Positions 7,282 through 63,323 of a stretch of DNA of 64,000 nucleotides are shown in pieces. The DNA comes from Carpediemonas membranifera BICM. Its lineage: Eukaryota; Protista; Fornicata. The notes under the pieces were generated by a model. It did not search any database. It saw nothing but the letters and a program-made list of their open reading frames with translations, and was not told the origin of the DNA. Each line of letters begins with the position of its first letter. The stretch's first letter is position 1. A program made the position numbers and the translations under genes. The stretch is from positions 277,556 to 341,555 of the forward strand of contig JAHDYR010000013.1 in the NCBI GenBank assembly GCA_019828565.1, written 5' to 3'.

Positions 7282-7285
7282 TCTT

Positions 7286-7450: not shown

Positions 7451-7516
7451 ATCCGATGGTCGAGGATCTTCCTTCAGGGTGGAACCGGGTTCGACCCCCG
7501 GAGTCACCATATTTTT
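7451..7516 (+). ncRNA. tRNA-like structure (D arm, T arm/B-box, CCA, T-run) antisense in the Gypsy-1 3' UTR
   Basis: ATCC-GATGGTCGA-GGAT arm, CCGGG-TTCGACC-CCCGG arm, AGTCACCA then TATTTTT; no paired acceptor stem, shortened middle arm. Confidence 0.45.
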
Positions 7517-12838: not shown

Positions 12839-13882
12839 TCAGCTCCATGCGCTTCTGGACAGTCGTATTGCTTCACTGATGTATGTTTGTACTGAGTCTT
12901 GCGCCCGCCATCCCCCCAAGGCTTGCACCACTTCCATTGGAGTTCCAGATTCAACCAGATGTACTGCGGCGCCGCGGCGGAAGGAATGCCCGGTGGCCTT
13001 GAATACTTCCTCGAGGTCCATCATCATTTCGAATCGCGCCCACGGCTCCAGTGCCCCCTTCAACGCAGACCGGCTCTCTCGTAGTGTTGCCTGGCTATGG
13101 GTGTACGAACGCCACAAGGGGCCTTCATCTGGTAGGTTACTCATGTGCTTGGCGAGCCACCAGGCTGGTGACCGCAGCTGGTCGTCGGCTGAGGGAACCA
13201 ACTTCAGCGTCGCTTCATCCCTTGTCTTTGTGTGTCGTATCGTAATCTCCAGCGCGCCGTCTGCTCCGCCGTGCCTCACATCCTCTGGCTTGAGTGCCCG
13301 GATCTCGCCTGCTCGCGACACTGTCGCAAACGTCACCAGGCCAAAGGCAATTGCCTGAGTGAGGGGCGGGGTCGCGTATGCCCCGGCTGACCTAGCCGCA
13401 GCCTCCAGCGTCTCACGCCTGATTGGCCAAGCCTTCCCAGTCTTACGTCTGGGCGTTAGCTCGCATCGGCCTGCTAGCCTCGCACCTGCCCTGGTCAGGG
13501 CCCGATGCAACCTTGTCGTCTCAGCGCTCTCGCCCAGTGCCTCCAGTCCCATCCTGATGTTCGCCTCCTTCGTGATGAATGTGTCTCTGGCGACGAAGGG
13601 GATTTCGGAAAATAGATACAACATCAGTGTGTCTGCCGGCTCAATGGCGTCAAGGAGCTCGGCGAACTCGTGCAACCACTCGCGGTCTGTGAGTTCCTGC
13701 CTTGCTCGGTCCAGCGTCGCCTGTGCCGTGTCCCTGGCCGTCGGGGCAGTCAGACAGGCTGACGATCCGGTAGACTCCGTCCATTCCCACAGGGAACCAG
13801 TCGCCGCCCAAGCGATTGCAGCCGATCGGTGCACTTTAAGACACTCTCGATGTCTTTCATGCAAGCTGTGCCCCGGCTGCAA
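12839..13882 (-). CDS. DIRS-type tyrosine recombinase (second YR, start uncertain)
   Basis: SRAGE, HTKT, HSFRRG, GGW, TYI: complete R-K-H-R-W-Y set. Confidence 0.92.
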   Translation of the reverse strand: MQPGHSLHERHRECLKVHRSAAIAWAATGSLWEWTESTGSSACLTAPTARDTAQATLDRARQELTDREWLHEFAELLDAIEPADTLMLYLFSEIPFVARDTFITKEANIRMGLEALGESAETTRLHRALTRAGARLAGRCELTPRRKTGKAWPIRRETLEAAARSAGAYATPPLTQAIAFGLVTFATVSRAGEIRALKPEDVRHGGADGALEITIRHTKTRDEATLKLVPSADDQLRSPAWWLAKHMSNLPDEGPLWRSYTHSQATLRESRSALKGALEPWARFEMMMDLEEVFKATGHSFRRGAAVHLVESGTPMEVVQALGGWRAQDSVQTYISEAIRLSRSAWS

Positions 13883-14150
13883 TTCATTGCATATGCCAAC
13901 ACAAAGAGCTCAAAACGAGGTCTATAGCCCTCAACGGCGCTTCGTTGAGGAGTTCTAGCGATTTTTCACTTTTGTTGCGCAATTTCTTCATCTGATGCGC
14001 AATTATTGAACCATCGAGCCTAAAAGAGACTCTAAAGCCTTAACGGCTTCCAAATAGCCAATATCACCTTGTCCATCAAGGTTTATGATTAGCCTCACTA
14101 AGGCCCACAATCATACCCCTCGCAGCCACTCCTCAATGGCTTTGAGGGGC

Positions 14151-18003: not shown

Positions 18004-18074
18004 TGCTCTGTAGTGTAGCGGTAGCATAAGAGGCTCATAACCTCTAGGCCTAGGATCGAAACCTAGCGGAGCAA
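18004..18074 (+). tRNA. tRNA-Met(CAT), initiator-type T loop
   Basis: Full cloverleaf: TGCTCTG/CGGAGCA, AGAGG-CTCATAA-CCTCT, CTAGG-ATCGAAA-CCTAG; followed by TTTTT. Confidence 0.93.
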
Positions 18075-18117: not shown

Positions 18118-18199
18118 TGCTGCCAGTGGGGTTCGAACCCACGCCCATTACTGGAAAGGGACTTGAATCCTCCGTCTTAGACCACTCGACCATAGCAGC
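18118..18199 (-). tRNA. tRNA-Leu(CAA)
   Basis: GCTGCTA/TGGCAGC acceptor stem, TTCAAGT loop, long variable arm, GTGGG-TTCGAAC-CCCAC; no T-run directly downstream. Confidence 0.9.
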
Positions 18200-35400: not shown

Positions 35401-37017
35401 TATATTTTATGGGTGTCGTCTTGGTCCTACTTGGTCCGAGACGACACCAGTGTGTCGAAATAAATTAGCATCGTTACAACAAAGAGAGCAAAGAAAGGCA
35501 AGCATGAACGCCAATGAGCAAGAAGAGCTAACGAAAGCGACGGCCAAGATCGCAGAACTCTCCGGAGCTTTGGACAAGCTAAAGGAGCAGCTCGATGACA
35601 AGACCGAAGAGAAGAAGCTCAAAACCACCGTGGCTCAGCTTCAGGAGGAGGCAAACCTTTCCTGGAAACGCCCTGCTTCCCAGTCGATGAAGGAGGAGGC
35701 TGAGTTCCTCGAAGACCTCTATCGAGCTTCAAGTTCGGACGCCTGAACGGCTATGGATTGCTCTCGCGCCTGTACCTCCGCCACCGTGTTCTGTGGTGTA
35801 AGGACCGGTATGGTTACCTCGTTGGTCTCTCGGTCGCCACTGCCGGCTCGGCGGCCCTCGCAGAGAAACCCGACATGGGCCCCGAGAAGATTGACAGCGA
35901 GGTTGTGTTTAAGACTCTGGCCAAGAACCCGCACCTCAAGGAGCGAACGAGACAGGACGAGGATTTTCGGAAGCCGAAGAAACCCAAGCGGGCAAACAAT
36001 CGGTAAACCGCCCTCTGTCCAAAATTCATCATCATCATTCATTCCCTCCTCTTCATCCATGTCCTCCTCAATCTCCTCAAGGATCACCTCCAACATCTCC
36101 TCCAACATCTCCTCCTCCGTCTCCTCCCCTGTGGTGGTCATAGACCACACTAATCATTTATACAGTTTAAGCCATTTATTGGCACAAGGGTTTTCTCTTC
36201 ATCTTTCCCTGTAAAAGCATTCTCCGCATTAGCGAGGCACATTAACGTTAATTCCCCTCATATGCTGAAGAAAACCGATGCCCACGGTTCCCGGCTCGTG
36301 GAGTACGACGACTCCTTGGCCTTTGACGACCTCACCGTCGCCTCACTGGACGACGATACATTTGAAGTCGAAGCCATTACTGGCCACCGCGGTGGCCCCA
36401 CGAAGAGTTCCCTTGAGTTCCTCGTCGCCTGGGACGGCTACCCAGGCGCCGATGAGTGGCTCCCCGTACCGCGAGGTCCGCGACCTCGAGGCCCTCGACA
36501 TCTACGCCGAGGCCCATCCGGAGCTGCACCTTTAGAAGGGAAGTGTGAGCAGTATAGGGTACTAACCCCAATACCAACCCTATAAACAGTTTGAATCAGA
36601 CTCCCTTTTACCTCGACAGATCACAGAGGCGGAGGCCAACCTCGTTGAACTTCTGAGTAGCGAGTTCTGTGAGATTGTTGGCCTCACAGCCGACCCCAGG
36701 CGACTGTAGCGGGCGGGTAGTGGTGGCTACGATGTCGTCCTGGAAGGCACGGATGCACCACCCAGGGAAAGCCTCACGAAAGACGTCCAGAATGGGCTTA
36801 ACGCCCAAGCTGAACAGAATTGGAGAGAGCGGGTCCCCCTGGTGGATACCTTCGGCCGACCTCATGGTTATGCCGGAGGTGGAGAAGAGGGAGCATCGTT
36901 TATTGCCATATAGCGACGAACAGTTTTGCGAGCGGCGAGGCACAGCCGAGCTTCGCGAGCCTGAGCGTAGCGAAGATTTCACTCTTATGGTCAGTATGTC
37001 GGGTGTGGGGCATGGCT
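32450..37017. repeat. Right arm of the 4568-bp inverted duplication (3' half of Gypsy-1, element B gag, Gypsy-4 chromo+LTR, CRE-like RT)
   Basis: Reverse complement of 5750-10317. Confidence 0.95.
32473..34783 (+). pseudogene. 5'-truncated duplicate of Gypsy-1 pol (two 1-bp frameshifts)
   Basis: Almost identical protein to the C-terminal half of 7982-12088. Confidence 0.92.
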
Positions 37018-40000
37018 TAGGTAAGCACGAGCGAGCGAGACTCCGGAGAGTGCAGTCGCCGGCTCATAGGTGGGTTCGTCGTAGCCTTCCCACTTCACCT
37101 TCAGTTCGAGGATGTCGTCCTTGACGCGGTGCTTGAGGATCTTCTCAACGATAAAAGTCTCCTCGTCTGAGGAAGCTAGCTGGCGGAGCTTGTTGAAGTG
37201 GTAGTTCACGTGGAACGGGAGCAGGTGATCCCGGTGGACGGTTGTGGTGGTGTTCGTGATGATGTCGGCGATAACGACGGCCTTGTGGTCGAGGATCTCG
37301 AGGATCTTGTAGGGTCCCAGGTGACCGTGCAACTTGGGGGTCCTGTTGCGCTGTACGAGGACTAGGTCACCTGGCTTGAGCTCGGTCTCTGCGGTCTTTC
37401 CTTTGGCAGGCGCTTCTCGACAACCTTACGTTGCGTCTCCTCCCCCTTCTTGGAAAGGGACTTCAGGTGGTTAGTGAGGTTGTCTAGGTATTCACGATGG
37501 GAGGATAGGATTGTCTCGAAGCTGTAGGGTCAGTCGGGGCGAGTAGCCGGGCTCTAGTGGCGGACGGGTCCAAATGCTCGCCGTAAAGCATGCTGTGGGG
37601 GGTGAGGCCTGTGGCAGAGCAGATAGAAGTGTTCAGCAAAAGCTGAACGGCAGGGAGAAAGCCTGCTCCACTCGTCAAACTTGTTAAAGTTGAGCGTGAG
37701 GCAGCGGAGGTGCTTCATCACTTCGGCGTTACGGCGTTCAACAACGCCGTTGGACTGGGGATGATACGGGAGAGTGTGTTGTTCGGTGATCTCGGCATCA
37801 GACAGGAGGGCCTTGATCACGGCACCAGTGTACTCCGGCCCGTTGTCAGCCTTAATGGCGGCAGGGATGCCATGACGGCAGACAAGTTGTTGCCAGATGG
37901 CAGAGGCAGCGGCATCGGCAGTGTTCTCATCGCTGGCATATAACTCCGTGTACCTGGTGAACATATCAACAAGGACGAAGATGTACTTGCGGCCGAACAT
38001 GTCTGCGGGGATGGGGCCTATGGTGTCAATGGCGACCGTGTGGAAAGGCTTATACACGGCCGTGGTCCCTAGGCTTGACTGAGCGAACTCAGAGAGTCTA
38101 GCCTTGAGACAGATCGGACAGGGAGTGGACGTAGGCGGCGATCTCTTGAGTCGCGCTGACCCAGGTGTAGCCGTCATCGCGGAGGCGGGTGTACGTGGCT
38201 CTAGCTCCGTGGTGGCCACAGTGAGCGATGGCAATAAGCTCTTGGCGTAAGCCCTTCGTTTGATCACAGGTCGGGATCATGCAGGCTCCGTTCCGGCGTC
38301 GGAGACCATCAGCGTCTACCGGCAGCTTGCTGATCTCCGGGTCCTCTCCTTGGAAGTGTGCCAGTCTGTCCTTGAACCGGGCATCGACAGATATGGCGGC
38401 GACGGGTTGGGCTGTAGTCTGGCCGTGGCCATACCGGCTGAGCGAATCAGCTATGACGTTATCCTTCCCGGGAACGTGTGTGATTTCAAAGTCGAAGTCG
38501 GCTAGCGTCAGACGCCAGCGGAGGATCTTGTCGTTCGTCGCGGACTTGTAGATCATGTAGATCAGATTACGGTGGTCTGTTCTGAGGGTTACATGCTTCA
38601 CGCGCAGAAGGTGGGTGAGGGAGGGGTGCGTGAAGGCGTATACGATGGCGAAAAGTTCCTGTTCGCAGGTAGCCCATCTGGTCTGGGTGGGGGTGAACGT
38701 ATGAGAGAAATAGGCCAGCACTTGTCTGCCCGAGTTGTCGTTGGGAGTCTGGTAGAGTACACCTCCGGCTCCGACATTGGAAGCGTCGGTCTCGAGGGTC
38801 CAAGGAAGGGACAAGTCTGGGTGAGCGATGAAGAGGTCATCGGTGAAGAGGGACTTAAGGGTGTTGAAAGCCTCAGTCTCGGCTGGGCCGAAGCTGAAGA
38901 CGGCGTCCTTCTCTAGGAGAGCGGTAAGGGGCTTGAACAGCTCATGGCGTTTCTCTGAGATGAATGAGGCTAAGAACTGGAACTTGCCGAGCACGGTCAT
39001 GAGCCCGTGGACATCAGTGGGGAGGGGAAGCTCTCGTAGGGCGCGGGTGCGCTCAGGGTCTACGTGAACTCCAGCCTTGTCGACAATGAAACCAACTATG
39101 GGGGCCTCGGAATAGCCTATTCGGCACTTCTTTGCGCCTAGGCGGACGTTGGCTTCTTCCAGGCGAGTGAGGGTGTCATCGAGAAGCTTGAGGAAAAGTT
39201 CCTCGGAGGAGTACATGAAGAGGTCATCGATGTACGGGTCAACCCCCTTATGGAGGATGGGCCCGAGGATAGTCTCGATACCTCGCTGGAAATGCGACGG
39301 GGCATTGGCAAGCCCAAAAGGCATCCTGGTGAACTGTTCATGCACGCCAGGGGCGATGAACGCGGTCTTCTCCTTGTCCTCGTCAGCCATAGGCACCTGC
39401 CAATAGCCTGAGGTCAGGTCCAGGGCGGCAAATCGGTCGCACCCACTTGCTCGGCGAAGGAACTCGCGCATGTTGGGGAGGGGGTGTCGATCACGGGTGG
39501 TGTGGCTGTTGAGTAGGACATAGTCGATGCAAAGCCGCCAAGCGTCCCCCTTTCGCACGAGGACTACTGGACTGGCATATGGGCCGGTGTTGGCCTCGGT
39601 GATGCCCTTGTCGCGTAAGTCTGAGACATGATCGTGCAGCCACTCCGTCTTGGCTGGAGCCAGAGGGCGTGGCTTCATGTTGACAATGTAGCCGTCGGTC
39701 GGGATGGTCATGGGGGGGAAGGCTGCCGGCTCTTCGGGGAGGTTTGGATCGAACACGGCGTCATGCTTGCGGAGGATCTCACGGATAGGGTCGTGTAGTT
39801 GATCAGGACATACGTCCACTTCATCGCTGAAGAACTGTGGAGCAGCTGAGGCTTCAGCGACAGGGACTGGGTCTAGGTACTTGTGGGGAGGGAGCCCTTC
39901 GGTGGTCTGGGGGTCTTCGTTGCAGTCGACGCCTGTAGGGACGAAGAGGCCCTTGGCGCTGAGGAAGCCAAGAGCTCTGAGGATATCACAACCAACGAGT

Positions 40001-40054
40001 ATGTGATCATCGTCGCGTTCGATTACGTGGAAGGTGGCCTCGGTAGTGACCATG
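36991..40054 (-). pseudogene. Gypsy-2 pol: protease C-half, RT, RH, integrase, chromodomain (frameshifts near 38115, 37655, 37415); 3' LTR absent
   Basis: ILVGCD, YIDD, TDAS, DTIGP, DNG, VERRN, KVKWEGY; rejoins 60430 onward in frame once the giant insertion is removed. Confidence 0.92.
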
Positions 40055-40106
40055 CAGTCAATTCTGGTACCTTTTCTGGAACAAATGGTTCCAGAATTGG
40101 TTCCAG
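40055..40106 (+). repeat. Left TIR
   Basis: CAGTCAATTCTGGTACCTTTTCTGGAACAAATGGTTCCAGAATTGGTTCCAG. Confidence 0.97.
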
Positions 40107-40527
40107 TTTCTTTGATCGATTTTGATCGAATCTCGCGGATCAGTTCTAAAGTTGGTGTGCGTACTCTATAGACCTAGCTTCACCTCTGGACACATTAATA
40201 CTGCATGCAGATGTCTCAATAAATATTTATGATCGGTTTTCGTATCGTCAGTGCAGGATAAGGTCGCATGACTTGGCCAAAGTCGCTCTTCAGAACTCGA
40301 TCGTCTGACACATACAAACGCTAAAAGTGGTTGGCAAAGATGCATTAGACCTTGTATATGACGTGTATAGACAAAATTTCGGGTGTTGCACTGTCACCTT
40401 CCAAAGGTGACCACGCAAAAAGTCTTGAAAGTGAACCTTCAATATCAAACTAGTGCTAAAGCAACGGTATTGTGCGTCATTTCCTCCAAAACGCCCCCTT
40501 TACGTGATATTGTACGCTCAATATTTG

Positions 40528-41757
40528 ATGAGTTCAAAATGGTGTGACAGTACGATGGCTGATAATACACGTGACAGAGACCTTTTGCGGAAGATTGTTG
40601 CAGCGATTATGGCAGCTTGCTTCTATTTTACTCCAGAAAGCATCGAATGTATGGAACTTGCTGCATCTGAGGTCATTTGGGCTATTCTTCCCGAACATCT
40701 ACAAGAATTGTTCAAGAAGAAGAGATTCATGGCGATGTACATCAAGCCTGCCATTACATCAACATTCAGCTGCTCAACCAGCCAGATCATGTGCAACACA
40801 ATGGGAAAGATTCGAGGATTGTTCTTGAAGAGAGATTGCGACATTAACATCGACCGGTTGCAGCTGGCCTTGCACGCTTTACATCCTGGCGAACATTTAA
40901 TTACCTGGGTGCCACCGGCTGTCGTTCGCCATCTCTCTTTCCAAAACTACTCGAAAAAGCAGGACAGGCGGTCAGTCTCCAGGATCAATATGCGCTCTGC
41001 ACCACAAGTGAGTAGTGTTGACACTGTCCGAGATGAGCAAGCTGCCAATCGGGCTGCACAAATGCATCTTCACATTGACCGCATATCTGAGCGGTTTACT
41101 TCGTGTGTCGCCGAGGCGAATGTTCTTGTGCGTAATGCGATGGACAAACGCAGTGTACTTGACCAGTTTACCTATAATCAGATCCACAACTCACTGAGAA
41201 TGTGCTGCCCGACATGTCTTGACCCATATAACATGATCTTCAAAATAGAAGACGAGCCAAATGTTTTGCAGTGCGACCAATGCCACCGCTACTACCATTA
41301 TACTTGTGAAGCAGGAGGTTTTGCCATACAAAGTGGCTACCTTTCAGACGGGAAGCGTTCAAACAACATGAGTCTGTGCGACAACTGTGCAGCTGTCAAT
41401 CAGAACGGGGAATGCTTTTATCGCACGCCAGATCACGATTGTACTGAGGATTTAACGGCTGACAGATCAGTGTCACATTGCTGTTACTACTGCAACAATT
41501 GGTTCTGCCGAGAGCACACAGCCCAGACGGCCTTTGATACCGGAATTGACATGCTACGTCGCCCATCTCAGCGTGTTGCTGTATGTGTCACATGCTTCAA
41601 TCGAATTCAGCTTGGTCAAAGACTGTTTAACGACAAGTTCGTGAGCACAGCTGCTTTGATATCTTGTCCCAATCCTGAAGCGTCCGAGCACACTGAGAAT
41701 GATGAAGAAGGCACTGGTATCGACACAGAGTCATCTGACAGTGATAAATATGATTAG
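40528..41757 (+). CDS. PHD-finger protein with a second Zn-finger
   Basis: CPTC...CDQCHRYYHYTC...CDNC (C4HC3), then CYYC...C..H...CVTC; first in-frame ATG used as start. Confidence 0.8.
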   Translation: MSSKWCDSTMADNTRDRDLLRKIVAAIMAACFYFTPESIECMELAASEVIWAILPEHLQELFKKKRFMAMYIKPAITSTFSCSTSQIMCNTMGKIRGLFLKRDCDINIDRLQLALHALHPGEHLITWVPPAVVRHLSFQNYSKKQDRRSVSRINMRSAPQVSSVDTVRDEQAANRAAQMHLHIDRISERFTSCVAEANVLVRNAMDKRSVLDQFTYNQIHNSLRMCCPTCLDPYNMIFKIEDEPNVLQCDQCHRYYHYTCEAGGFAIQSGYLSDGKRSNNMSLCDNCAAVNQNGECFYRTPDHDCTEDLTADRSVSHCCYYCNNWFCREHTAQTAFDTGIDMLRRPSQRVAVCVTCFNRIQLGQRLFNDKFVSTAALISCPNPEASEHTENDEEGTGIDTESSDSDKYD

Positions 41758-41837
41758 AGGCGCGCTCAAACCAACGTTTAGAGAAGAGCCCGAGAGAGAG
41801 AAGCCGGGAGAAGAGCCGGGGGAGAGCCCGGGGGAGA

Positions 41838-42133
41838 GCAGCAACTCCCACAATTCTTTGGGATACTGTTCTTTTGGTGTTGATGTTGTTATTGATGTTG
41901 ATTTTCTCCGCTTTTCGCTGCTTTGCGTTGTAATTGCAATGTTTTCTAGTACATTCCGCGCATCAGATCATTGCTACAACCTGAACTCGCCATTTTGGCG
42001 TTGCAATGAAACTATCCCCTAAAGTGCACACTAAATGAAATCAGAACAATTCGGGGCAAGTGGCGGCATTCATGCAGCTGAATATCTGCTTAGCTTGCCT
42101 TACTAGTCACCTTGATATGGCTGATGTGACGGG
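41838..42133. repeat. Partial copy (M0) of internal module M
   Basis: Matches about 56269-56565. Confidence 0.9.
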
Positions 42134-42240
42134 GATGCACTGATGAGTCTGCACATTGACACAAATTCATTTTTGATCGATGAGCCAACTACTCAGAGGA
42201 CACAGCCTGCAACAACCCTCAAAACCCTCTAATCTATCAG

Positions 42241-42834
42241 CTATTCGTATTTAAAAGTGAGGGACTCGACCTGAATGGTCTCCTTTGTGTTGCAGTTGCA
42301 ACGCCACAAGATGAAGTAGTGGAACTCTTCTTCATTGACCCCCCCCTCAATGAGGGCCTTGTACCACACTATAAACTCACAGGGATAGCACACCATGACT
42401 GACAAACCCCATCTATCGCCGATGCAAACATCGAAATCGAAGTTTTCAGTCGCGAACTCCTCTCTCGTTCTCGCTTTGCAACTGAGAGCGATCTTACACC
42501 AACGCAGATACGTCAGGTGCTGACTCATGATGCTCGATGCTTCATCCACAGTTGTGGAAGGGAGATCTCTCGTCATCTTTGCCGGAACAGAGCAGTGGAC
42601 AACACCTGTGCCGTAGTTCTCGGCAAGAGACTTAGTTCTCTCCGTGTAGATGGTCTCAGCACCCTTGGTTGTAAGCCAAAAGGTTACAAACGCCTCAACA
42701 CACGAAGCCTCCAACTTTGAAATGCTTGCGCTGGGGTTCTCGATGTTTCCACGTCTTATCATTGTGTACAATGAAGCAAGGTGCCTAAAAAGCAACCCAT
42801 TGTTGGTTTTCGCTGGACATTCTCGGAAGTGCAT
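42241..42834 (-). CDS. Hypothetical cargo protein (start uncertain)
   Basis: 197-aa ORF divergent from the SET gene; no motif recognised. Confidence 0.45.
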   Translation of the reverse strand: MHFRECPAKTNNGLLFRHLASLYTMIRRGNIENPSASISKLEASCVEAFVTFWLTTKGAETIYTERTKSLAENYGTGVVHCSVPAKMTRDLPSTTVDEASSIMSQHLTYLRWCKIALSCKARTREEFATENFDFDVCIGDRWGLSVMVCYPCEFIVWYKALIEGGVNEEEFHYFILWRCNCNTKETIQVESLTFKYE

Positions 42835-42861
42835 GTTAAGGTTGAAACGTTAAGGGTCGAA

Positions 42862-43566
42862 ATGAAGACAATCGCAATCCCTGCGATCAATGATGATGAC
42901 AAAAACACCCCCAAAAGCTTATCTCTTGCCGACTACGAGACGTTTATGGACCTATCGAAGCTATCTGATGAGCAGAAGAAGAAGTTCCTTTCCCTGAAGA
43001 CTAAAACGCCTGATTCCACCTATTCAGGTGAGGAATTCGACACTGCAGGCATTCACAAGGACAGGAAGCTTCACATCACACAGCAGGATAGCCTGATGGG
43101 ACTGAGCGTTGGTCAAGGCATGTTCAGCAGCCAGGCCGTCCAAGTCGGCGAAGTTATCGGCATTTACTGCGGTCATGTCATCACTACGTCTGATTCTCAT
43201 GGTGACTTTGACTTCCTCATCGACAAGACGGACTTTTGCGTGAGTGCTGACCCGAACACCATTGGAGTCCACCGAATCAACGACAATCCGGTGCTGACGA
43301 ATGTGCAGTGCAACATCAGCTATGTTCGCGTGTTGGTCGAATCAGATGAGCCCACGCTCCTTCCTCTTCTCTTCTTCGTGTGTGTTCGCACGATACGCCC
43401 GTACGAGTTCCTATCGGTTCAGTATGCCGATAGCTACTGGGCCAGGGGTGAATCAGAGCGTCTTCCACTCTTTGTTGTGTCATTCAAGACGCTTGTCGAG
43501 AATGCTAGGCTCACGAACATTGCTGACGCCCGGTTCCATGCCCGGCATTACTTACGCCTAGAATAA
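42862..43566 (+). CDS. SET-domain lysine methyltransferase
   Basis: GQGMFS...GEVIGIYCG, HRIND, RTIRPYEFLSVQY..SYW. Confidence 0.85.
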   Translation: MKTIAIPAINDDDKNTPKSLSLADYETFMDLSKLSDEQKKKFLSLKTKTPDSTYSGEEFDTAGIHKDRKLHITQQDSLMGLSVGQGMFSSQAVQVGEVIGIYCGHVITTSDSHGDFDFLIDKTDFCVSADPNTIGVHRINDNPVLTNVQCNISYVRVLVESDEPTLLPLLFFVCVRTIRPYEFLSVQYADSYWARGESERLPLFVVSFKTLVENARLTNIADARFHARHYLRLE

Positions 43567-43581
43567 GTAAATCCGCTGGTC

Positions 43582-54823: not shown

Positions 54824-55831
54824 ATGAACCGATATAACAGGATCCATCACCCTGAAAGGTACGCGCGCCAAGAATACGGCCATCGTGAACCTCCTCCGTT
54901 CCTTTCCGCGTGGAACGATGAGCAGCTCCGCATCCTTGGCGATAATGCGCGAGTTCTTCAGCTGCTCGCCATGATGGTCCCTTGGATGCGGAAGATCTTG
55001 GCCTCGCCTGAATTTAACCCCGGGTGCAAGCCCAATAGCACCGAGAAGGACCTCCTCGGCAAAGAGCTCGAACAGGACGTGGATTCATCAAGAATCCTTC
55101 GTGTGATGTCCAATCGAGCGGCGTACAACAAAGCCCATGCCAAGATCATTCGTGATCTCGTTGAGTACCGGAACCGCGCAGCTCACAATGAGCTTGAGCC
55201 CGACACCCTGCCCAAGGTCCTGGAGCTGGTCGAGAGCTTGGCCCAGGCCTTCTCGGTTCCATTGCACGATAACGTCAGGGCGTTCATCGCGCTGCTTAAG
55301 TCGCCAGTGTCGCTCGTTGCGACAAGTGAACATCATGCTCTGACGAAGAAGGTCAGCATTCTTGAGGATGAGATTGAGAGGCTGCGTAGCGGCGGCCGTA
55401 AGACCATGCTCAGGCTGCCAGGTGTCAGGTCTCAGCCGGTGCCCACCACTTTGGAGCAGGCAACGATGACGACTTCGGACGTCGGAGACCTGGATGAGCC
55501 GAGGCCCAGGCCCGAAGACACGGGCAAGACGCGCGGTACGCTCATGTCGCGCACACTGACTGCTAGCCAGGTGGACCAGCTAGCTATGGCCAGAACGCAT
55601 GACCCCCCGCTTGTCCTGTCAGGACGTTGCATCGTGTGCGGGGGCTCATGCGAGACCTCAGAGTGGGCTTGCCGTCGTACCTCAACGACGACACCCAAAG
55701 ATCCTTGCCGAACGTTGATTCGGAAGGTTAAGATTGGGAATACTCGCGACGTCTCTGTCTACCTCACAGATGAGGCATTTGAGTGGGTCAAGCGTCGCGA
55801 TCCGACAGGCAAGAGAGCGAGACAGGAATAA
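54824..55831 (+). CDS. Second copy of the HEPN-domain gene
   Basis: One amino-acid difference (R to M) from 46037-47044. Confidence 0.75.
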   Translation: MNRYNRIHHPERYARQEYGHREPPPFLSAWNDEQLRILGDNARVLQLLAMMVPWMRKILASPEFNPGCKPNSTEKDLLGKELEQDVDSSRILRVMSNRAAYNKAHAKIIRDLVEYRNRAAHNELEPDTLPKVLELVESLAQAFSVPLHDNVRAFIALLKSPVSLVATSEHHALTKKVSILEDEIERLRSGGRKTMLRLPGVRSQPVPTTLEQATMTTSDVGDLDEPRPRPEDTGKTRGTLMSRTLTASQVDQLAMARTHDPPLVLSGRCIVCGGSCETSEWACRRTSTTTPKDPCRTLIRKVKIGNTRDVSVYLTDEAFEWVKRRDPTGKRARQE

Positions 55832-56565
55832 ATGAATGTATATATGCCTGTCTGGGCATCAGCGCTGTCGTTCAGGCCAATCCACGTTTGTGGATCCGTG
55901 CAGTTTATGGTTTCTCGGCCTCCATGCTACAGCCCTGCCTCACCATCGGTATCGACGTGTACTGCGGCAAGAACAGCTTCACCCAGGGCGAAGATAACGT
56001 CCGCCAGGGTCAGCGCCGCTCCGTCATCGGCATGTCCGCCTGGTACGTCGAAGAGCAGGGCCACCTTGAGACCGTCAACCGTCCCGTCGAGACCATCGCC
56101 CGCTTGGCGAGTAAGCGCTACACTACCGCTTCACCAGCCCTCCAAGGCAGCGTTCTGGACCTGCGTCATCTCCGGCGAACTGGAATGATCCAAAGTAACG
56201 GTGTAGTGTTCTTTCTGGCAGCTAATTGTGCATAAGCGAATGCTTTGTGGTCATTTATTGCTCTTTGGCGCAGCAACGCCCACAAACTCTTTGGGATACT
56301 GTTCTTTTGGTGTTGATGTTGTTATTGATGTTGATTTCTCCGCTTTTCGCTGCTTTGCGTTGTAATTGCAATGTTTTCTAGTACATTCCGCGCATCAGAT
56401 CATTGCTACAACCTGAACTCGCCATTTTGGCGTTGCAATGAAACTATCCCCTAAAGTGCACACTAAATGAAATCAGAACAATTCGGGGCAAGTGGCGGCA
56501 TTCATGCAGCTGAATATCTGCTTAGCTTGCCTTACTAGTCACCCTGATATGGCTGATGTGACGGG
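55801..56565. repeat. Internal module M4, abutting the transposase upstream region
   Basis: Copy of M. Confidence 0.95.
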
Positions 56566-56602
56566 CCTGTTGATGAAAGCCACATGGCCGTGCACTTTAG
56601 GG
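56449..56602. promoter_or_regulatory. Candidate divergent promoter: inverted 13-mer CCCTAAAGTGCAC / GTGCACTTTAGGG
   Basis: One copy ends 16 nt before the transposase ATG; the other points into module M; a variant precedes the kinase ATG. Confidence 0.45.
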
Positions 56603-56618
56603 CATAAGACATCTCAGA

Positions 56619-59219
56619 ATGAGTAACGCATCATTTCAACTATCCACTGTGACAGATGACGCTGTGATCGAGTTCTTGGACAATAGCACCTTGAAGGAGA
56701 TCGTTTCAGCAATTCTCGACGAATTCTTGCGGAAGAACAGACAAGGAGCTTTCACTTGTGACTCCAAAGAACAATGCAAGCGTTGTCTGATTCAGTTCTT
56801 GTCGCGTACAGCTAGAGCGACAAAGGGCGTAGAAATGCCGCTTCGAAAGGCGATTGTTGATGAGGATTGGCAAAAACTACACGCGCAACGAGCTAGCAAC
56901 CATCATGTGCGTGTGACGCGAAGGGATATCAGGGACGAAGCGCTCCCACTGTACAAGGCGATGTCAACGATTTTGGCCGTCGATCTTGGCATCAATAAGT
57001 TTTCTCGCCTCAGAAAGGTGTTCCTTGACTTGGCAGATAACATGGGGTTGAGGACGGCCCTTGAAGCCTATACACCACCTGCTGTCCAGAGTCTTGATAG
57101 CTTGGGATATGACATAGTTTCAAGAGATGAAATGAAGTGTGTGTTACAGCGCACGCCCACGCTCATCCATGATATGATGGCGTTCACGCCTGAGCACAAG
57201 GATGTGACTGGTCATGATGGTGTTACGACACAGTCACTGCAGATGAACTGTGCTGCCGGATTCTCACAGGCAGTTTCCGTCACGAATGTGTTCTACGTAC
57301 CTGTGAAAGTTTCTGACAATGAAGATGACAGCGCCCGGCTGCCTGATCTCTACATGAGATTGCAGCACCTTGAGTGCGCCTATGTGTATCACCACGAGAA
57401 GCTTGGAAATGGCGCTGGTCGAGTGTTCGTCTGCCACGAGAATGCAGAGACACTCAGTCGGGCAAAGGAGATCTGTACGGATTTGAAGTTTTCAGCTGTT
57501 GATATCTGTGCCAGAAAAGAGCGCATTGTTGTCAAATCTGTGACTTATGACCCACTCGCGCTTGTTAAGTTTTGCCTGCAGCATCCTTCACGGATTGAAC
57601 GCGATATTAAGGCTTACAAAAAGGCTTTGATGGGCTCTGTTGTTGCCGATGATTCCAGAGAGCAAACGATAGATTTGATCGTCTGGTTTGATGGATATCG
57701 AGCTGATGCTACGGCAGTGAAGTTCAGACTATTTGACAGGACAGGGTGTGTTCTACCACAGCGAATAACTCCTCCCATGACTCTTCTCATGTATCAAGGG
57801 TCTGAGAAGTTCTTACCGGATTTCTTTGGCACGATCGAGCGCCTGCTTCGCTCATTGGTTGATGTGCCGCTTCCTTCTGGCGTGAGTCACTACAGGCCAG
57901 CTAGTAGAATCATCGTGCGACTCCTTGGTCTTAGCGGTGATCACAAGGCTCTTCAAATTGTCTCAGGTGTGAAGCGGGGTGGCTATTACCGCTCACCATT
58001 CTCCTCTCTTAACATGTTCTACGTCGCAACCGATCCATTTAAGGACAGGTGTAATCGTTTGACACTACGCGACACTGTCAGCTTGCGTTTCAACGGGCTT
58101 ACCCCTGACACACAGCGTTTTGGGCAGGCAGACGGACGCAATATCGATATGTGTTGTTTCAGTCGCCTGACGTCTAGTGGTATCCATGAAATCCAGCCAA
58201 TGTTCGCGGGGACCTTGCTTATTCCGCCAGTCATGCATATAAGCCATTATTTGATGAAGGATCTTTGGATTGTCCTTGGATTGATCAAGAAAAGCTGTGC
58301 AGGTTCCAATGTTTACACATTAGACAAGATTGAGGCCGACTTTAAGAGGACCACGGGTTGCAACGAGCAGAGTTGGAATCGGCGGAAGCTGGCCACTCTC
58401 GTGAATGATCACATTGATGGATTTGACAGCACCCTTCGCTCATTTATTTTCCTGATTGGAAAGCTTCAGGCCCTTTATTACTCATCGGATCACGTCACCG
58501 ATGCCACAATCGCATTTCATCATGCAGCATCCCTTGCAGCGTTTATGTTCTTCCATCAACTCACGCTCCACAGTAAGCGCGATAAGAACAAGGCGACTCG
58601 TTCCGACGAGTACCGGTTGACATATCAACCCAAGTTTACTGGATCTCTCTACCTGAATGCCGTCGTGTCTGTTCTTCCTGTAGTTCACAGTCAACTTCGT
58701 ATTGGACTTAGGTTCCTTCTTGAGGAGTACTTCGAGCGCGATTTTCTGTTGAATGCACAGGTTAGGCAAGAGAAGCATCGCGCTTGGCTTCTGGGTTTTA
58801 TTATCCAGAAGATCAGCATCAACCGGATCATTTCCAGTCATACAAGACGAGGAAGCACCAGAAAACACGGCCAGGTGAAGAATATTGCAGTGGAGTGTAA
58901 GTCTATCTGTTTCCACAAGTGTCTGTTTGATGCAAATGCTTGTATTACATGGCGATCAAGAGTTCTATCATGCCCTCCTCAGTTGGATGAGGCTGAGTGT
59001 CAGATGTCCCTGGAGAATATCTTTTGTGGTTGGGTTGCTGGCATACGAAATGAGACTCAAAATGTGCAGGACCTGTTCCAGATTGATGAGAAAGAGCGGA
59101 TCATCACGGTTAAGACGGCAACCAGTGGTTTGGACTGGGGCTTATGCATCTGTGGGAACTGCATCCAGCGAGAGAGAGAAGAGCATATGGTGGGTGGTCA
59201 CCGCTTGCGTCCAAGGTGA
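56619..59219 (+). CDS. RAG1/Transib-like DDE transposase (866 aa)
   Basis: Ordered motifs WFDG, TLLMYQGSE, SGDHKAL...G, GI...PMF, PPVMH, NRRKL, LYLNAVV, EEYFE parallel RAG1 core CDG, PLCLMLADE, GYDEKLV..G, GV..KPF, DALH, ARKL, NYFHKTLAH, SEGNE. Confidence 0.78.
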   Translation: MSNASFQLSTVTDDAVIEFLDNSTLKEIVSAILDEFLRKNRQGAFTCDSKEQCKRCLIQFLSRTARATKGVEMPLRKAIVDEDWQKLHAQRASNHHVRVTRRDIRDEALPLYKAMSTILAVDLGINKFSRLRKVFLDLADNMGLRTALEAYTPPAVQSLDSLGYDIVSRDEMKCVLQRTPTLIHDMMAFTPEHKDVTGHDGVTTQSLQMNCAAGFSQAVSVTNVFYVPVKVSDNEDDSARLPDLYMRLQHLECAYVYHHEKLGNGAGRVFVCHENAETLSRAKEICTDLKFSAVDICARKERIVVKSVTYDPLALVKFCLQHPSRIERDIKAYKKALMGSVVADDSREQTIDLIVWFDGYRADATAVKFRLFDRTGCVLPQRITPPMTLLMYQGSEKFLPDFFGTIERLLRSLVDVPLPSGVSHYRPASRIIVRLLGLSGDHKALQIVSGVKRGGYYRSPFSSLNMFYVATDPFKDRCNRLTLRDTVSLRFNGLTPDTQRFGQADGRNIDMCCFSRLTSSGIHEIQPMFAGTLLIPPVMHISHYLMKDLWIVLGLIKKSCAGSNVYTLDKIEADFKRTTGCNEQSWNRRKLATLVNDHIDGFDSTLRSFIFLIGKLQALYYSSDHVTDATIAFHHAASLAAFMFFHQLTLHSKRDKNKATRSDEYRLTYQPKFTGSLYLNAVVSVLPVVHSQLRIGLRFLLEEYFERDFLLNAQVRQEKHRAWLLGFIIQKISINRIISSHTRRGSTRKHGQVKNIAVECKSICFHKCLFDANACITWRSRVLSCPPQLDEAECQMSLENIFCGWVAGIRNETQNVQDLFQIDEKERIITVKTATSGLDWGLCICGNCIQREREEHMVGGHRLRPR

Positions 59220-59502
59220 TTTGTCTCTTCCCAAATTGGTATCTCCGGATATATGCGATATATAAATAATGCAATGTTAGCTCAGCGATTAAGGACAGCG
59301 CTCCTGGTATCAACAGGGCGCATCATGCCCTGCGTATTCTAGCAGCACGCGGTCTCTCCGCATCCCGCATGTTCAATCTCACTACGTTGTTTGCTCGTCT
59401 GATATTAACAGCAGAATGACACCAGAAAATTTACCAAACATGATGTGGACGGGGAGTGCTTCAATATTTGTCTCTTGATACGGTTCATGTTTGCTAGTTG
59501 CC

Positions 59503-59754
59503 TCACTGAGAACGTAGGATTGCCTTCATCAGGTATATGGACGCAACATCAAGGTATTCCTTCGCGATATCGTCTGCAAAGAGGTAGTATTCCTCTATTT
59601 GAACCAAATCTTTGATTCTTCTGCGCATCGTCTGTAATTCAGTGACGAATTCGTGTCTTCTCATGTTTGTGCACTTTATGCACAAACATGAACCTCCATT
59701 GATTTGAAGCAATTCTGGCACTATTAAGCGCCACGCTACGAGTGAGCATGGCAT
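59503..59754 (-). CDS. Small helical hypothetical ORF
   Basis: Protein-like composition only. Confidence 0.25.
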   Translation of the reverse strand: MPCSLVAWRLIVPELLQINGGSCLCIKCTNMRRHEFVTELQTMRRRIKDLVQIEEYYLFADDIAKEYLDVASIYLMKAILRSQ

Positions 59755-60377
59755 GTTTCAACACCTAGCCGTCGTCACAGTTTAGTCAGTTTTGACTCGA
59801 ACCGAACCAGTGCCTATAACACCATCAATACTGAAGTTCAGATCCTTTTGAAGTGATAAACTAGTAGAATAGAAGGATGAATAACACTGTGCTCAGTTTT
59901 AGCTCCGTTGGACATGAAACATATTTTTCTATCGATTTGCGTTTGCTTGCGAAAGTTTGTGCTATTTTCTCCAGATAAAGGCGTGCGCAAGGAAATCTGG
60001 AGGCTAGCGCTGTTATAATGAATATTAAACTGTTACGTAACGGTGTCGGTATCCAACGCGCATCCCCCGTTCTTGAGCAGAAGCAAACTTTTTTGGCAGT
60101 ATTTCCCGAAAACCTCAACTTTGAGCAAGAATAATTTTTTGGGGGAGCTGTCACAGACTGAGAGAGAGTTGGAGCTGGCTTAAGCACACCTCGGGCAAGC
60201 CTCTGTTAGTTTTTGGTCGAGCTCTGCTGAAAAGTGAGTGAGTTCATGAGAGCAGTACGTATCAACGTTCCTTGGGCCCAGTATTAGTTGCATATTGCTT
60301 TACACCCCGTGGCAAGGCGTCGCTAAATTGTTTGAACGCGTTTAGTTTTTCTTGCAAATGCCATTTTTTTTGGCATT

Positions 60378-60429
60378 CTGGAACCAATTCTGGAACCATT
60401 TGTTCCAGAAAAGGTACCAGAATTGACTG
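60378..60429 (-). repeat. Right TIR
   Basis: Exact reverse complement of 40055-40106. Confidence 0.97.
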
Positions 60430-61754
60430 CATGACCATGGCGTTGCCCGCAGATGGAAGGCTCAGACTCACCTTTGCTACGCCCTTCGTCATAAAAAGCT
60501 GCTTATTGACGTCCAACAGAGCAATTGAGACGGATGTGTCGATCGTGGCCTTGAGGCGCTCGGCCAACAACTGCGAAATACAGCTTGGGGCGGAACCGGA
60601 ATCAATCAGGATTGTCTGCGTCTCGCCGTTGACTTTCCCTTGGACGGTGAAGTAGGATGAGTCGGGCTGTGGTTCGTCGACAGACTGCACCGGCTGGGCA
60701 TGGGCGGTCTCATGCACTGGTCTTTCCTTCTTGAGGGTGCTGCTGGGGCGGAGGTTCATCCTACCAGCGCGGCGGTCGGACTGCTGAGTGGGATCCGCAT
60801 TTGGTTGAGGCACTGGCAGCTGGCAGTTGGCGTTGCCCGAAGTATGTCGGGCTTGGGTATGTGGCTGTTGCTTGTCATGCTGGCCGGTCGGTTGTGCCGG
60901 GTGCGGCGACTGGTTGGACTGCTGGGTGGAGCCTCGCTGGGCGGCGTCGGCCTTAGGGCACTGCCACCTCCAATGCCAACCACCACAGAATGGGCAGGGG
61001 GTCTTGGAGGGTGTGGCCGGGAGCCCATGTGTTCGGCCTATGGCGGGGCGGCCTTGGCGGCTCTGCCCGCCACCTTGGCGATGGCGGTCAACGGAGTTCA
61101 ACACGGCAGCTGACGTGGTGGACGGTGTCAAAGACGAGATGTCGAGGCCTGCCAGATCGCTTGCCAGCGCCTGGAGGCGCTCGACCTCGGTCTTCACGAT
61201 CTGAACGGTATCCTCGAACAGGCGAGCGCCTTGTAGCTCAACCTCGGTCTTGAGGCGAGCTTGAAGCTCACTTGGCCTGATGGCGGCGAGGAGTACACGG
61301 GCGGCGACCTTGCTCAGGCCCCGATGAGCGGGGCTAGGCCCGGATGGCGAGGAGCCCAGTAGCTCAGCGAGAGCGTCTACGTCGGGGTCGTCATCATCAG
61401 CTTCAGGCTTGGGCGGGTCGTGGTCGGGGATGAACGTTAGAGCGTGCTTGTAGAGCGCACGGAGCTCTCGGACGTACAAGAGGATCGAGTGAAGCTTGTT
61501 GTCGTGATTAGGCATCTGGAGGGCACGCATTGCTCGGAGGCATCCATTGAGTGTTGGAGGTAGGAGGTGCGTGAGGAGAGAAGCCTCGATATCTTCAATG
61601 GTTGCGGAAGAGAGATCAACTTCATATCGAAGCTCAAGGACATCAAGAATCTCTTCTGAAATACAGTCGGATGGCGAAAGAGTTGGAAATTGGGCTTTGA
61701 GGACTCGGAAGTGCCGAGTGAAGGTTCTGATCGTAACAGGATCTAGATCAGATA
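60430..61754 (-). pseudogene. Gypsy-2 gag and protease N-half (first codons at 63280-63306, split by the Tc1 element)
   Basis: CPFCGGWHWRWQC, LIDSGS; removing the Tc1 element and one TA gives MVTQNHLFLSDLDPVT in frame. Confidence 0.9.
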
Positions 61755-61819
61755 TTGCTCTTTTACTCTAAAAATGAACATCATTTTGATTAGGCCTGGA
61801 ACTTTTTGATTGACGACAG

Positions 61820-62269
61820 ATGGTGAGAACTGTAACGTGTAGCCTGTGCAGCTGCAAGAACCACAACAGGGCTGGATGCCCATTCAAAGATGTTTTATCT
61901 ACAGCTGAGGATGGTAATGTTGATAACTCCGCGATAACACAGGGAATGAGGACGTTGGTGGAGAACTCGGAGATTGCACGGGCTCTCCCTGGAAGGATGA
62001 TTGCCGCATGGGCATTCGAGATCATGCGAGGACATGCCACTGTCGCTAATCCTCCCGCCGGTCTCCTGAAGCCGCACTCGACGCCCTCATCCTCTGACTA
62101 TCAGCCTGCACCGCGGAGAGAAGTGTCGCACGGCTTTATCTCCATCCCAGTGAAGCCCGAGTGGTACTCTCGCGTTATCTCGTTCCTTGCGTCTTTGGAG
62201 GAAGCAGAGCGCAGCGAACCTTCTCAGCCAGCTCTATCTGTTACATCCAGCCAAGAATTGAGAGAATAA
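61820..62269 (+). CDS. Zn-knuckle accessory protein inside the Tc1-like element
   Basis: CSLCSCKNHNRAGC; ATG start; stop converges on the transposase stop. Confidence 0.6.
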   Translation: MVRTVTCSLCSCKNHNRAGCPFKDVLSTAEDGNVDNSAITQGMRTLVENSEIARALPGRMIAAWAFEIMRGHATVANPPAGLLKPHSTPSSSDYQPAPRREVSHGFISIPVKPEWYSRVISFLASLEEAERSEPSQPALSVTSSQELRE

Positions 62270-62275
62270 ACAGCT

Positions 62276-63205
62276 TTAATGGGAATATCCATGCTTCTCG
62301 TAGAGACCTCTTATGTTTTTCTTGGCAACGTCATCAAAGGCGGCGAGTATTGCCGGCAAACGCCCCATGTCCTTAAAGTGCGTGTGAACAAACGCCTTGA
62401 TCCACGCGAACACAACCTCGATTGGGTTCAAGAATGGCGAATACTTAGGGAGGAAGACGATGCGGACATCATAGAGTTGCATTAGGGCGTCAAGCTTGCC
62501 CTTGAGTGCGTGTATGGAGGCATTGTCCATCACGAGGACGCACCCCGGTATCATCCCCAGCAACTCTATGGTATTGTCTAGAAACTTGTCAGCAGTAAAT
62601 GTACCTGTCGTTATGACTCTGTGCTTGATCCCTTCGACGCCAAGAGTCGCGCACACCGAGTAACGCTGGCCGACCGGGCCACCCTTGCGGCAAGCATATG
62701 TCCTAACGCCTTTTGGGCCACGCACTCGCTTGACCGCCAGGTGACGGGGGTCGAAGCTAGTCTCGTCGAGGAAGAAGACTTGATCGGTGGAATAGTACGG
62801 GGCAATCTCCGTTGCGTAGAATGAACGGAAACGCCAGGCTTCCTCTGGATTCCTTTCCATCCATCTGGTGTCACCGACCTTGAGCGTAAGCTTCTCTTTG
62901 TGTAGTATCGTCTGGGAGAGGCTGGATAGCGATACTGAAATACCGAACTTCAGCTGCACGACAGTGGCTATGTCGCTAAGCCGAGCAGCCGGATTCTGGA
63001 GAACATAGTCACGTACATACTTCGTCACTTCTGGGCTCATCTTGGTAGCTGATCTCACTCTCTTTCCAGAGCATTTCGCTCTATTGGCCTTGATATCATA
63101 GATGACATTGCGGCAACGGCCCGTTACGCGTGCAATGTTTGCTATAGACATTTCACTTCCGAGAAGTGTTGCTATGTTCAGTCTCTCTGAATCAGTTACG
63201 ACCAT
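62276..63205 (-). CDS. DD35E transposase
   Basis: N-terminal HTH, FLDET, MDNASIH, YSPFLNPIE; 35 residues between second D and E. Confidence 0.95.
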   Translation of the reverse strand: MVVTDSERLNIATLLGSEMSIANIARVTGRCRNVIYDIKANRAKCSGKRVRSATKMSPEVTKYVRDYVLQNPAARLSDIATVVQLKFGISVSLSSLSQTILHKEKLTLKVGDTRWMERNPEEAWRFRSFYATEIAPYYSTDQVFFLDETSFDPRHLAVKRVRGPKGVRTYACRKGGPVGQRYSVCATLGVEGIKHRVITTGTFTADKFLDNTIELLGMIPGCVLVMDNASIHALKGKLDALMQLYDVRIVFLPKYSPFLNPIEVVFAWIKAFVHTHFKDMGRLPAILAAFDDVAKKNIRGLYEKHGYSH

Positions 63206-63323
63206 TCACTCTCTTCAATTTGTGAGCAGAACTTTGAATGAATCAAAACCAATTGTTCATTTTTACGCTGAAAGAGCAATAGGAACAGATGATTCTGCGT
63301 TACCATTTTCCAGGAGTGATCAC

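Follow-up and report, generated by a model that had tools for sequence, protein, structure and literature searches.

A 20-kb gene-carrying DNA transposon of Carpediemonas membranifera with a transposase of predicted RAG1 fold and a putative anti-silencing kit

A stretch of 64,000 nucleotides from the genome of Carpediemonas membranifera BICM (assembly GCA_019828565.1, contig JAHDYR010000013.1, positions 277,556 to 341,555; hereafter the window, in whose positions all coordinates are given) contains a DNA transposon that forms a single unit of 20,383 bp (40051-60433), inserted into the protease gene of a Gypsy retrotransposon. Very probably this is one element with 56-bp CATG...CATG ends that is moved by cut-and-paste by a transposase of predicted RAG1/Transib fold and inserts at an AC target. 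More tentatively, and with somewhat less than an even chance of being right, we propose that it may represent a new superfamily-level lineage of giant RAG1-fold transposons (CATG ends, AC target, zinc site lost), known to date only from Carpediemonas and a few other assemblies and carrying a modular anti-silencing kit of chromatin writers, erasers and readers plus Piwi decoys; by analogy, the decoys would be convergent with those of Drosophila telomeric retrotransposons, and this convergence shares the standing of the proposal as a whole.

The limits of the element and the two parts of its target are the following.

40049-40050, plus strand: left target-site duplication (TSD) AC, preferred reading
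40051-40106, plus strand: left terminal inverted repeat (TIR), 56 bp, starting with CATG
60378-60433, minus strand: right TIR, 56 bp, finishing with CATG
60434-60435, plus strand: right TSD AC, preferred reading
59220-60377, no strand: right subterminal region, non-coding
60434-61767, minus strand: target, upstream half of the Gypsy polyprotein that the element splits (gag, protease start), Pfam aspartyl protease E 1e-4
38098-40050, minus strand: target, downstream half of the same split Gypsy polyprotein (protease end, reverse transcriptase (RT), RNase H)

The TIR arms are complementary over 56 of 56 nucleotides (100%) and are the sole such pair for that sequence in a self-comparison of the window, with about 3e-23 pairs like it expected by chance. 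Joined across the element, the Gypsy halves read ...GNAM followed by VTTEATF..., and the GC content is 50.7% within the element versus 55-57% outside it. The perfect single TIR pair with Gypsy halves on either side therefore indicates one insertion and not two small elements. An initial annotation of this stretch had described one large gene-carrying unit that cleanly splits a Gypsy protease open reading frame (ORF), and both descriptions are borne out, the gag-protease half lying to the right and the RT/RNase H half to the left. Repeated GGTTCCAG and TTCTGG motifs in the left TIR are likely sites for the transposase.

Because the target itself is GTGACCATGG-like, five symmetric TIR/TSD readings fit the window (56 bp with AC, 55 with GACC, 54 with TGACCA, 53 with AT and 52 with CATG), and the Gypsy frame is kept in each. 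The initial annotation had chosen perfect 52-bp TIRs, which start with CAGTC, and a 4-bp CATG TSD; the window alone is compatible with this choice, or with its 54-bp/6-bp variant, yet we regard it as improbable in view of related loci. A scan of metagenome contigs reduced 523 candidate stretches to five such loci (L001-L005), and L002 and L005 carry one element in two different flanks. Their right ends read ...ACAG CATG AC, the two sequences being near-identical up to that point and parting beyond it, so that AC directly follows the right end in three of three cases (window, L002 and L005). The L002 flank is a Gypsy integrase in which ATG precedes Thr-Val-Gly-Pro, versus Asp in both integrases of the window; if the L002 target was intact, CATG is therefore owned by the element, and only a 56-bp TIR with AC fits. 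A CATG TSD would need CATGAC at three independent targets and a Met at the first catalytic Asp of the L002 integrase. Spacing within the protease, compared with the second Gypsy of the window, points weakly the same way (7 against 6 residues under the AC reading, versus 9), as does the rule of CA..TG termini and 2-5 bp TSDs given for the CMCT clade of transposons in PMC12730594. From these sequence comparisons we take a 56-bp TIR with a 2-bp AC TSD to be the likely boundary, both sides being visible at one insertion only; the perfect pairing claimed for the ends stands, whereas their length and the CATG duplication give way.

Two of the three insertion sites (window and L002) fall within the coding sequence of Gypsy elements, and the flank in L005 has the look of mobile DNA too; the family may have a preference for inserting into other transposons. 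Versions of the right subterminal region (59417-60344) were present in contigs of public runs X1-X3, with 5-8 substitutions, an 8-nt insertion and a depth of up to about 2000, far above that of other pieces; these may be non-autonomous copies or abundant RNA, contig depth not being decisive. None of the listed contig pieces from the public runs covers a TIR tip on either side or the greater part of the transposase, which makes them uninformative on expression and copy number. A Tc1 relic suspected within the right subterminal region was not supported.

Immediately inside this region lies the transposase gene.

56619-59219, plus strand: RAG1-fold DDE transposase, 866 aa, frame open throughout

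The reading frame is thus intact, as the initial annotation had stated, and residues 315-772 of its product are identical to the annotated C. membranifera protein J8273_7060. By sequence, no superfamily could be assigned: no match was found in Pfam, PHROGs, NCBIfam or PDB, none of 20 family members matches a transposase Pfam at E <= 1, and the leads from the ESM Atlas (0.84-0.86) were to RAG1, DUF1280 and Transposase_21 clusters. An AlphaFold2 model was obtained from a 20-row alignment (pLDDT 77.6, pTM 0.74; a single-sequence model with pLDDT 35 was left unused). Its best Foldseek matches were RAG1 (E 1.5e-6), HzTransib (9.4e-5) and BbRAGL (1.5e-4), and 42 of 42 among the matches listed at E <= 0.001 belonged to one of these three; at the same threshold there was no fold match among viral structures. 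Alignment with VIA-align gave Z 12.8 for RAG1 (5zdz; 408 residues aligned, rmsd 5.0), 12.1 for HzTransib (6pqx), 11.3 for the P element (6p5a) and 11.0 for ProtoRAG (6b40), with 10-12% identity to these structures. The RAG1/Transib-like fold proposed earlier is upheld by both programs, but a special closeness to Transib is not, as RAG1, Transib and the P element fall within 1.5 Z of one another. The model also contains a ferredoxin-like insertion at about aa 220-300.

Residues W356, D358, D441, PPxMH (536-540) and E702/E703/E706 are kept in at least 90% of the 20 alignment rows, and motif order points to D358, D441 and E706 as the putative catalytic triad. GDHKAL..GY and PPxMH may resemble motifs of Chapaev3. 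At the C(2)C site after the second Asp the window reads RSPF (at 458), and among the 17 rows spanning this site none has both Cys and seven have one. The H(3-4)H site before the last Glu, located by motif analogy, reads LNAVVSV (at 679); the second His is present in no row, the first in many.

These features bear on the placement of the transposase. As set out in Kojima 2025 (PMC12730594), the CMCT clade comprises EnSpm/CACTA, Mirage, Chapaev, Transib, Plavaka, ESTA as well as Lanisha; its defining marks are a C(2)C and an H(3-4)H motif, CA..TG at the termini and a TSD of 2-5 bp. Like its members, the window element has a RAG1-like DDE fold, CA..TG termini and a TSD (2 bp) inside that range, and like some of them, according to the same text, it has captured epigenetic enzymes. 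Under the CATG reading, the termini (CAGTC..GACTG) and the 4-bp TSD would fit equally. Unlike them, it has neither the C(2)C nor the H(3-4)H pair and no Pfam match to the member families; CATG termini with an AC target are not among the members described in the accessible portion of that paper, and the eight cargo genes and the metamonad host also set it apart. ESTA has a TA TSD and a first row starting with CAC, and PlavakaB has CATCA..TGATG termini (PMC12730594), whereas here AC follows three of three right ends and the terminus is CATGC in the window, L002 and L005. On the modelled fold and the sequence motifs, the transposase would best be called CMCT-like without being filed as a member, since termini and TSD fit and the zinc motifs do not.

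RAG1, Transib and ProtoRAG are its best structural matches and share the order of its catalytic motifs. The termini of Transib and of recombination signal sequences (RSS) are CAC; the window element differs from RAG1/Transib in its CATG terminus, its 20-kb length, the ferredoxin-like insertion and an identity of 10-12%. The 7-bp termini of Transib resemble RSS, and its TSD is 5 bp long (PMC4411706), whereas no 5-bp reading occurs among the symmetric boundaries here. The element is not a Transib, and no RAG2-like gene was identified in the window. P elements are characterized by a THAP domain and a 7-8 bp TSD; their transposase is alike in fold (Z 11.3; Foldseek E 0.06), whereas neither a THAP match nor a 7-8 bp TSD was found here.

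Besides the transposase, the element carries eight distinct genes: SET, kinase, OTU-like, HEPN-like, PHD-like and tyrosine-recombinase (YR)-like genes and two for which no family was found.

40528-41757, plus strand: PHD-like ORF, 409 aa, with a C4HC3 finger at aa 227-287 and more Cys/His clusters; Pfam PHD E 0.058
42241-42834, minus strand: 197-aa ORF, no family found (Pfam, PHROGs, NCBIfam)
42862-43566, plus strand: SET-domain (lysine methyltransferase-like) gene; Pfam SET E 0.043
44374-45630, minus strand: 418-aa ORF, no family found (Pfam, PHROGs, NCBIfam)
46037-47044, plus strand: HEPN-like gene, 335 aa, copy 1, with an RNRAAH motif and a C-terminal Cys cluster
47769-49203, minus strand: protein kinase with C-terminal zinc ribbon; Pfam Pkinase E 1e-19, DZR_2 E 0.003
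49341-50420, minus strand: YR-like ORF, 359 aa; ESM Atlas 0.93-0.95 to integrase clusters
50422-50750, no strand: pair of 31-bp inverted repeats, 90%, in the intergenic space from which the YR-like and OTU-like genes diverge
51591-53132, plus strand: OTU-like ORF, 513 aa between stops, its C-terminal part bearing the protease motif DGNC ... H

The multi-gene character reported in the initial annotation therefore stands, whereas its count of about ten genes falls to eight distinct ones plus the transposase, the kinase being split, the HEPN-like gene duplicated and a 418-aa gene present again in truncated form. The kinase alone passes a curated threshold. The SET assignment is supported by homology to three SET ORFs of L001 and L003 (E 1e-8 to 1e-4) and by a joint profile that retrieved 37 PDB sequences at E 0.035-0.8, almost all of them named SET/PR methyltransferases. 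For the HEPN-like gene the Pfam HEPN_Swt1 score (E 0.002-0.007) lies under the curated cut-off, and the OTU-like ORF, with no Pfam match, shares its motif with an ORF of L003 (E 0.002) and reaches OTUD3 in PDB at E 1.5. No host-adaptive gene was identified among the cargo.

Genes of the same kinds, in another order, occur in the relatives, whose transposases are 26-28% identical to that of the window. L001 carries two SET genes and a GNAT acetyltransferase. L003 has a zinc-ribbon kinase and, besides it, one gene each of the OTU-like, SET and RCC1-repeat kinds; the two loci also share a gene of 333-353 aa with a His-Gly...Cys pattern, which may be caspase-like. Three of the eight window genes (SET, kinase and OTU-like) have homologues in relatives, at E 1e-8 to 0.002, and five have none. 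Since kinds of cargo are kept beside transposases of just 26-28% identity, the kit appears to be old and modular, and on sequence grounds we regard the cargo as a trait of the family. In L003 and L004, which have the same transposase, the gene ahead of it (276-299 aa; L003:8114-8941 and L004:363-1259) exists in two versions with 53% identity, showing that cargo was swapped immediately 5' of the transposase. A conserved partner gene for the transposase did not emerge. Three members have long palindromes of hairpin type, or inverted pairs, upstream of cargo genes (L001:202-288, L004:222-329 and window 50422-50750).

The YR-like ORF raises the alternative that this protein moves the unit in the manner of Starships and that the DDE gene is a passenger. 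All ten of its named matches in the ESM Atlas belong to one clan of integrase clusters, with just 103-130 shared features, and no match was obtained in Pfam, PHROGs, NCBIfam or PDB. Read by eye against the catalytic motif, the ORF appears to have no TGxR Arg and no clear HxxR His or Tyr nucleophile, and from its sequence it is likely to be catalytically dead. No YR-like homologue occurs in L001-L005, whereas the DDE gene is common to all relatives and, in L002 and L005 as in the window, adjoins the right end, and TIRs with a TSD are hallmarks of DDE enzymes. A unit driven by the YR-like protein is thus extremely improbable. An attempt to relate this ORF to the DIRS-type recombinase at 12842-13909 failed, the two being not alignable.

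Part of the element has arisen by internal duplication, of which the main products are listed here.

54058-56483, no strand: duplicate, 2.4 kb, containing the second HEPN-like gene (54824-55831)
53980-54417, minus strand: second, truncated copy of the 418-aa gene
43582-44281, no strand: patchwork unit of about 700 bp, copy 1 of 4 (the others at 46959-47713, 53282-54019 and 55746-56483)

The 2.4-kb duplicate corresponds to 45271-47695 (99.8%, 4 differences). Each patchwork unit combines the HEPN-like gene's 3' end with short pieces of foreign origin, a segment of a Piwi gene described below and a common intergenic tract. A 36-nt piece (45762-45797 and 54549-54584) matches several other contigs of the public runs, whose flanks, with the motif GENYNGQLG, look like RCC1 repeats; the RCC1-repeat gene of L003 sits upstream of the cargo of that locus.

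Near-identical internal duplication amounts to about 4.2 kb of the 20.4 kb, and this could be read as a small transposon, made of transposase and ends, that was swollen by nested insertions or assembly errors and whose cargo never moved as a unit; the region is a nest of retroelements, and the 31-bp inverted repeat pair adjoins the YR-like ORF. We consider this very improbable, as 16.2 kb of the element is unique, the internal duplicates differ at 4 positions, repeat search and self-comparison found no nested element with TIRs and TSD inside it, and SET, kinase and OTU-like homologues lie beside distant transposases in another assembly.

The feature of the transposon that suggests an interaction with host silencing, and that the initial annotation had missed, is a segment present in four identical copies.

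43699-43884, plus strand: Piwi segment copy 1, 186 bp, equivalent to aa 562-623 of protein P0034 and including the GIDV motif
47131-47316, plus strand: copy 2, identical to copy 1
53454-53639, plus strand: copy 3, identical
55918-56103, plus strand: copy 4, identical, 515 bp upstream of the transposase

A peptide search with the segment retained one protein from nine candidates, the C. membranifera protein P0034 ('Piwi domain', 823 aa; Pfam Piwi E 7e-38), which is identical at 56 of 62 residues. At the nucleotide level, 43699-43884 matches positions 1649-1834 of a 2423-nt contig (public runs X1/X2) over 186 nt with 19 differences (90%), and beyond the match the ends of this contig translate to the adjoining residues of P0034. 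We take the GIDV motif to hold the first catalytic Asp of PIWI. Nine of the 12 differences listed (of 19 in all) fall at third codon positions (P 0.004), so that change occurred mostly in a coding lineage, either the host gene after the capture event or a donor that had itself diverged. A 31-nt part of the segment matches a second contig (2404 nt) with one difference, possibly a paralogue. Three of the four copies lie between converging genes, the fourth before the transposase.

Comparable captures are known from Drosophila telomeric retrotransposons, in which pieces of piwi or aub of 140-235 bp, with 76-95% identity (median about 90%), have multiplied to as many as eight copies within one element; piRNAs mapping to the host gene are reported there (Son et al. 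2026, PMC13534243). The window segment lies within this range (186 bp, 90%, four copies). By this analogy, the Piwi segments may serve anti-silencing, a function to which we assign a little less than an even chance.

A phmmer search of 1.84 billion representatives with the transposase returned 17 matches; of the 16 looked up, 10 were C. membranifera records and 6 were other clusters. Annotated C. membranifera records of the family number 24, some of which may be parts of one locus. Exact look-ups of ten translations from the window, of cargo and transposase, had no entry in the protein collection. The nearest subfamily, about 50% identical to the window transposase, has 8 records on 7 contigs at 99.5-100% to their own representative, and another has 5 records at 98-99%; near-identity within subfamilies implies that the family moved recently. 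A tree of 21 rows of the new family splits into numerous deep subfamilies. Rows from C. membranifera fall on either side of its midpoint root, and the meeting of several long branches makes the deep joins unsure. Alignment A2 and the tree exclude P0022, which has a low-complexity repeat C-terminus, and the tree further excludes the short fragments P0004, P0006, P0007, P0012, P0023, P0024, P0026, P0029 and P0031-33, plus P0001. A word-limited profile search for transposase relatives recovered two known proteins only. None of 147 candidate stretches in viral contigs was related, and the TIR pattern had no match there; in prokaryote genomes none of 123 candidates was related to the transposase.

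Taken as a mechanism, these elements would operate in four steps. We are confident of the first, in which the transposase (D358, D441, E706) would bind the repeated subterminal motifs, excise the unit and insert it at AC. In the second, the SET methyltransferase, the kinase, the OTU-like protease and the PHD reader (and GNAT in a relative) would probably act on chromatin or host proteins and keep the element active, the kit itself being, with similar probability, old and reshuffled. In the third step, which we lean towards slightly less, template switching at excision breaks under repair would have brought in the host pieces and produced the internal duplications; non-homologous end joining is reported absent in metamonads (PMC8516963), and its absence would help such capture. 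In the fourth, which we place not quite at an even chance, read-through from the converging genes would copy the three Piwi segments between them on both strands and give small RNAs; by analogy with Drosophila, and with the same reservation, these would turn the Piwi/Argonaute of the host on its own mRNA, with weaker silencing of transposons as the result.

Several observations weigh against this account of an active element with a silencing-related cargo. The transposase is without the CMCT zinc ligands CxxC and H(3-4)H, which makes its activity putative. The kinase is frameshifted, its two frames overlapping at 48490-48515 over a short dinucleotide run, with both halves aligning to one uninterrupted kinase ORF of L003, and the PHD, OTU, HEPN and YR labels are motifs or sub-threshold scores. 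The window's own subfamily is one annotated record, and a further complete copy bounded by two ends did not turn up in the sequences compared. The left TIR was not found in L001-L005, and the location of cargo within TIRs is, in these relatives, deduced from its adjacency to the transposase. Divergence of the Piwi segment amounts to 10%, no run of identical bases between the 12 listed differences exceeds 17, the segment was not found in L001-L005, and its copies ride in a 700-bp unit with other foreign scraps, so that their amplification may be a by-product.

The points on the Piwi segment lead to the alternative that it is neutral filler in a real transposon, namely scrap from break repair that was multiplied inside a duplicated 3'-end/terminator block, and this possibility too we rate at slightly under an even chance. 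The 700-bp unit is a patchwork that also includes 35 nt shared with another contig and an internally repeated stretch of 22 nt, the 36-nt piece at 45762 is further scrap, and the tract after the Piwi segment (43887-44164) occurs in an X1 contig with other upstream DNA and without the Piwi piece. Against filler, the longest foreign piece by far comes from the silencing effector itself, and its size, identity and gain of copies match the Drosophila cases with measured host-gene piRNAs (PMC13534243); the 31-nt part matches a second contig as well, and the third-position excess indicates that divergence took place mostly under protein constraint.

Among large or gene-carrying elements are EnSpm/CACTA families of 16-20 kb with 4-5 ORFs in Chondrus crispus (PMC6431247), which share with the window element the size class, the multi-ORF build and a RAG1-related superfamily; lineage, termini and cargo differ, and no Transposase_21 match was found here. 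Capture of chromatin genes is known from TET-carrying ESTA, Plavaka and EnSpm elements of fungi and from the SET-carrying HarbingerS and MuDR of Phytophthora and the anti-silencing Vandal elements (the latter three as cited in PMC12730594). HarbingerS, MuDR and Vandal resemble the window element in bearing chromatin or anti-silencing genes, whereas they belong to other superfamilies and have a single captured gene in place of a multi-enzyme kit with a Piwi segment. The Drosophila captures of piwi, aub and nxf2 are alike in comprising a Piwi-family piece of 140-235 bp and about 90% identity amplified within the element, and differ in concerning LINE retrotransposons of flies with piRNA evidence, the present element being a DNA transposon of a metamonad protist.

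Starships are larger and have an active tyrosine-recombinase captain as their first gene. The likeness to them drawn by the initial annotation is sound as to large size and several cargo genes and loose otherwise, for here a DDE enzyme with TIRs is found, the YR-like gene is placed mid-element and seemingly dead, and the cargo looks self-serving (chromatin, silencing). Polinton/Maverick elements encode a protein-primed PolB, a retroviral-like integrase, a packaging ATPase and a protease (PMC6431247); no Polinton family was detected among the element ORFs with Pfam and PHROGs, as the initial annotation had also noted, and the 197- and 418-aa ORFs matched nothing.

No description of the family was found in the literature, a search that Repbase and Dfam lay outside, and the main text of the genome paper has no occurrence of 'transpos'. 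The claim of an undescribed family agrees with this, whereas that of a novel size class does not, given the Chondrus elements (PMC6431247). As multi-gene CACTA elements of 16-20 kb are already described, we regard the transposon as a new lineage or variant of the RAG1/CMCT clan and not as a new category. It extends the RAG1/Transib clan to a deep eukaryotic branch in a form overlooked by standard profiles (0 of 20 with Pfam), and provides, beyond fungi, plants and red algae, a cargo element with several enzymes that is based on a DDE transposase. Its unusual ends and degenerate zinc site bear on the diversification of relatives of the V(D)J recombinase, and a transposase carrying 20 kb is of interest for gene delivery. 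If the Piwi segments are active, they would represent anti-silencing capture by a DNA transposon, with a protist as host, a strategy then evolved repeatedly, and small RNAs would be predicted on Piwi codons 562-623.

The rest of the window is rich in other mobile DNA. The C-terminal part of a dynein heavy chain (114-5600) is its sole clear host gene. Segments 5750-10317 and 32450-37017 form a 4.57-kb inverted duplication (99.8%) that covers a Gypsy element in part, together with an RT fragment of LINE type, and between its arms lies a nest of DIRS-like and LINE-like sequences with two tRNA genes (18004-18074 and 18118-18199). In this nest a tyrosine recombinase (12842-13624; Pfam Phage_integrase E 8e-12) stands beside RT/RNase H frames, which identifies a DIRS-like retrotransposon. 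On the other side of the element, an IS630/Tc1-type transposon (61753-63281) with 28-bp TIRs and an intact DDE_3 transposase of 309 aa lies at the 5' end of the target Gypsy gag.

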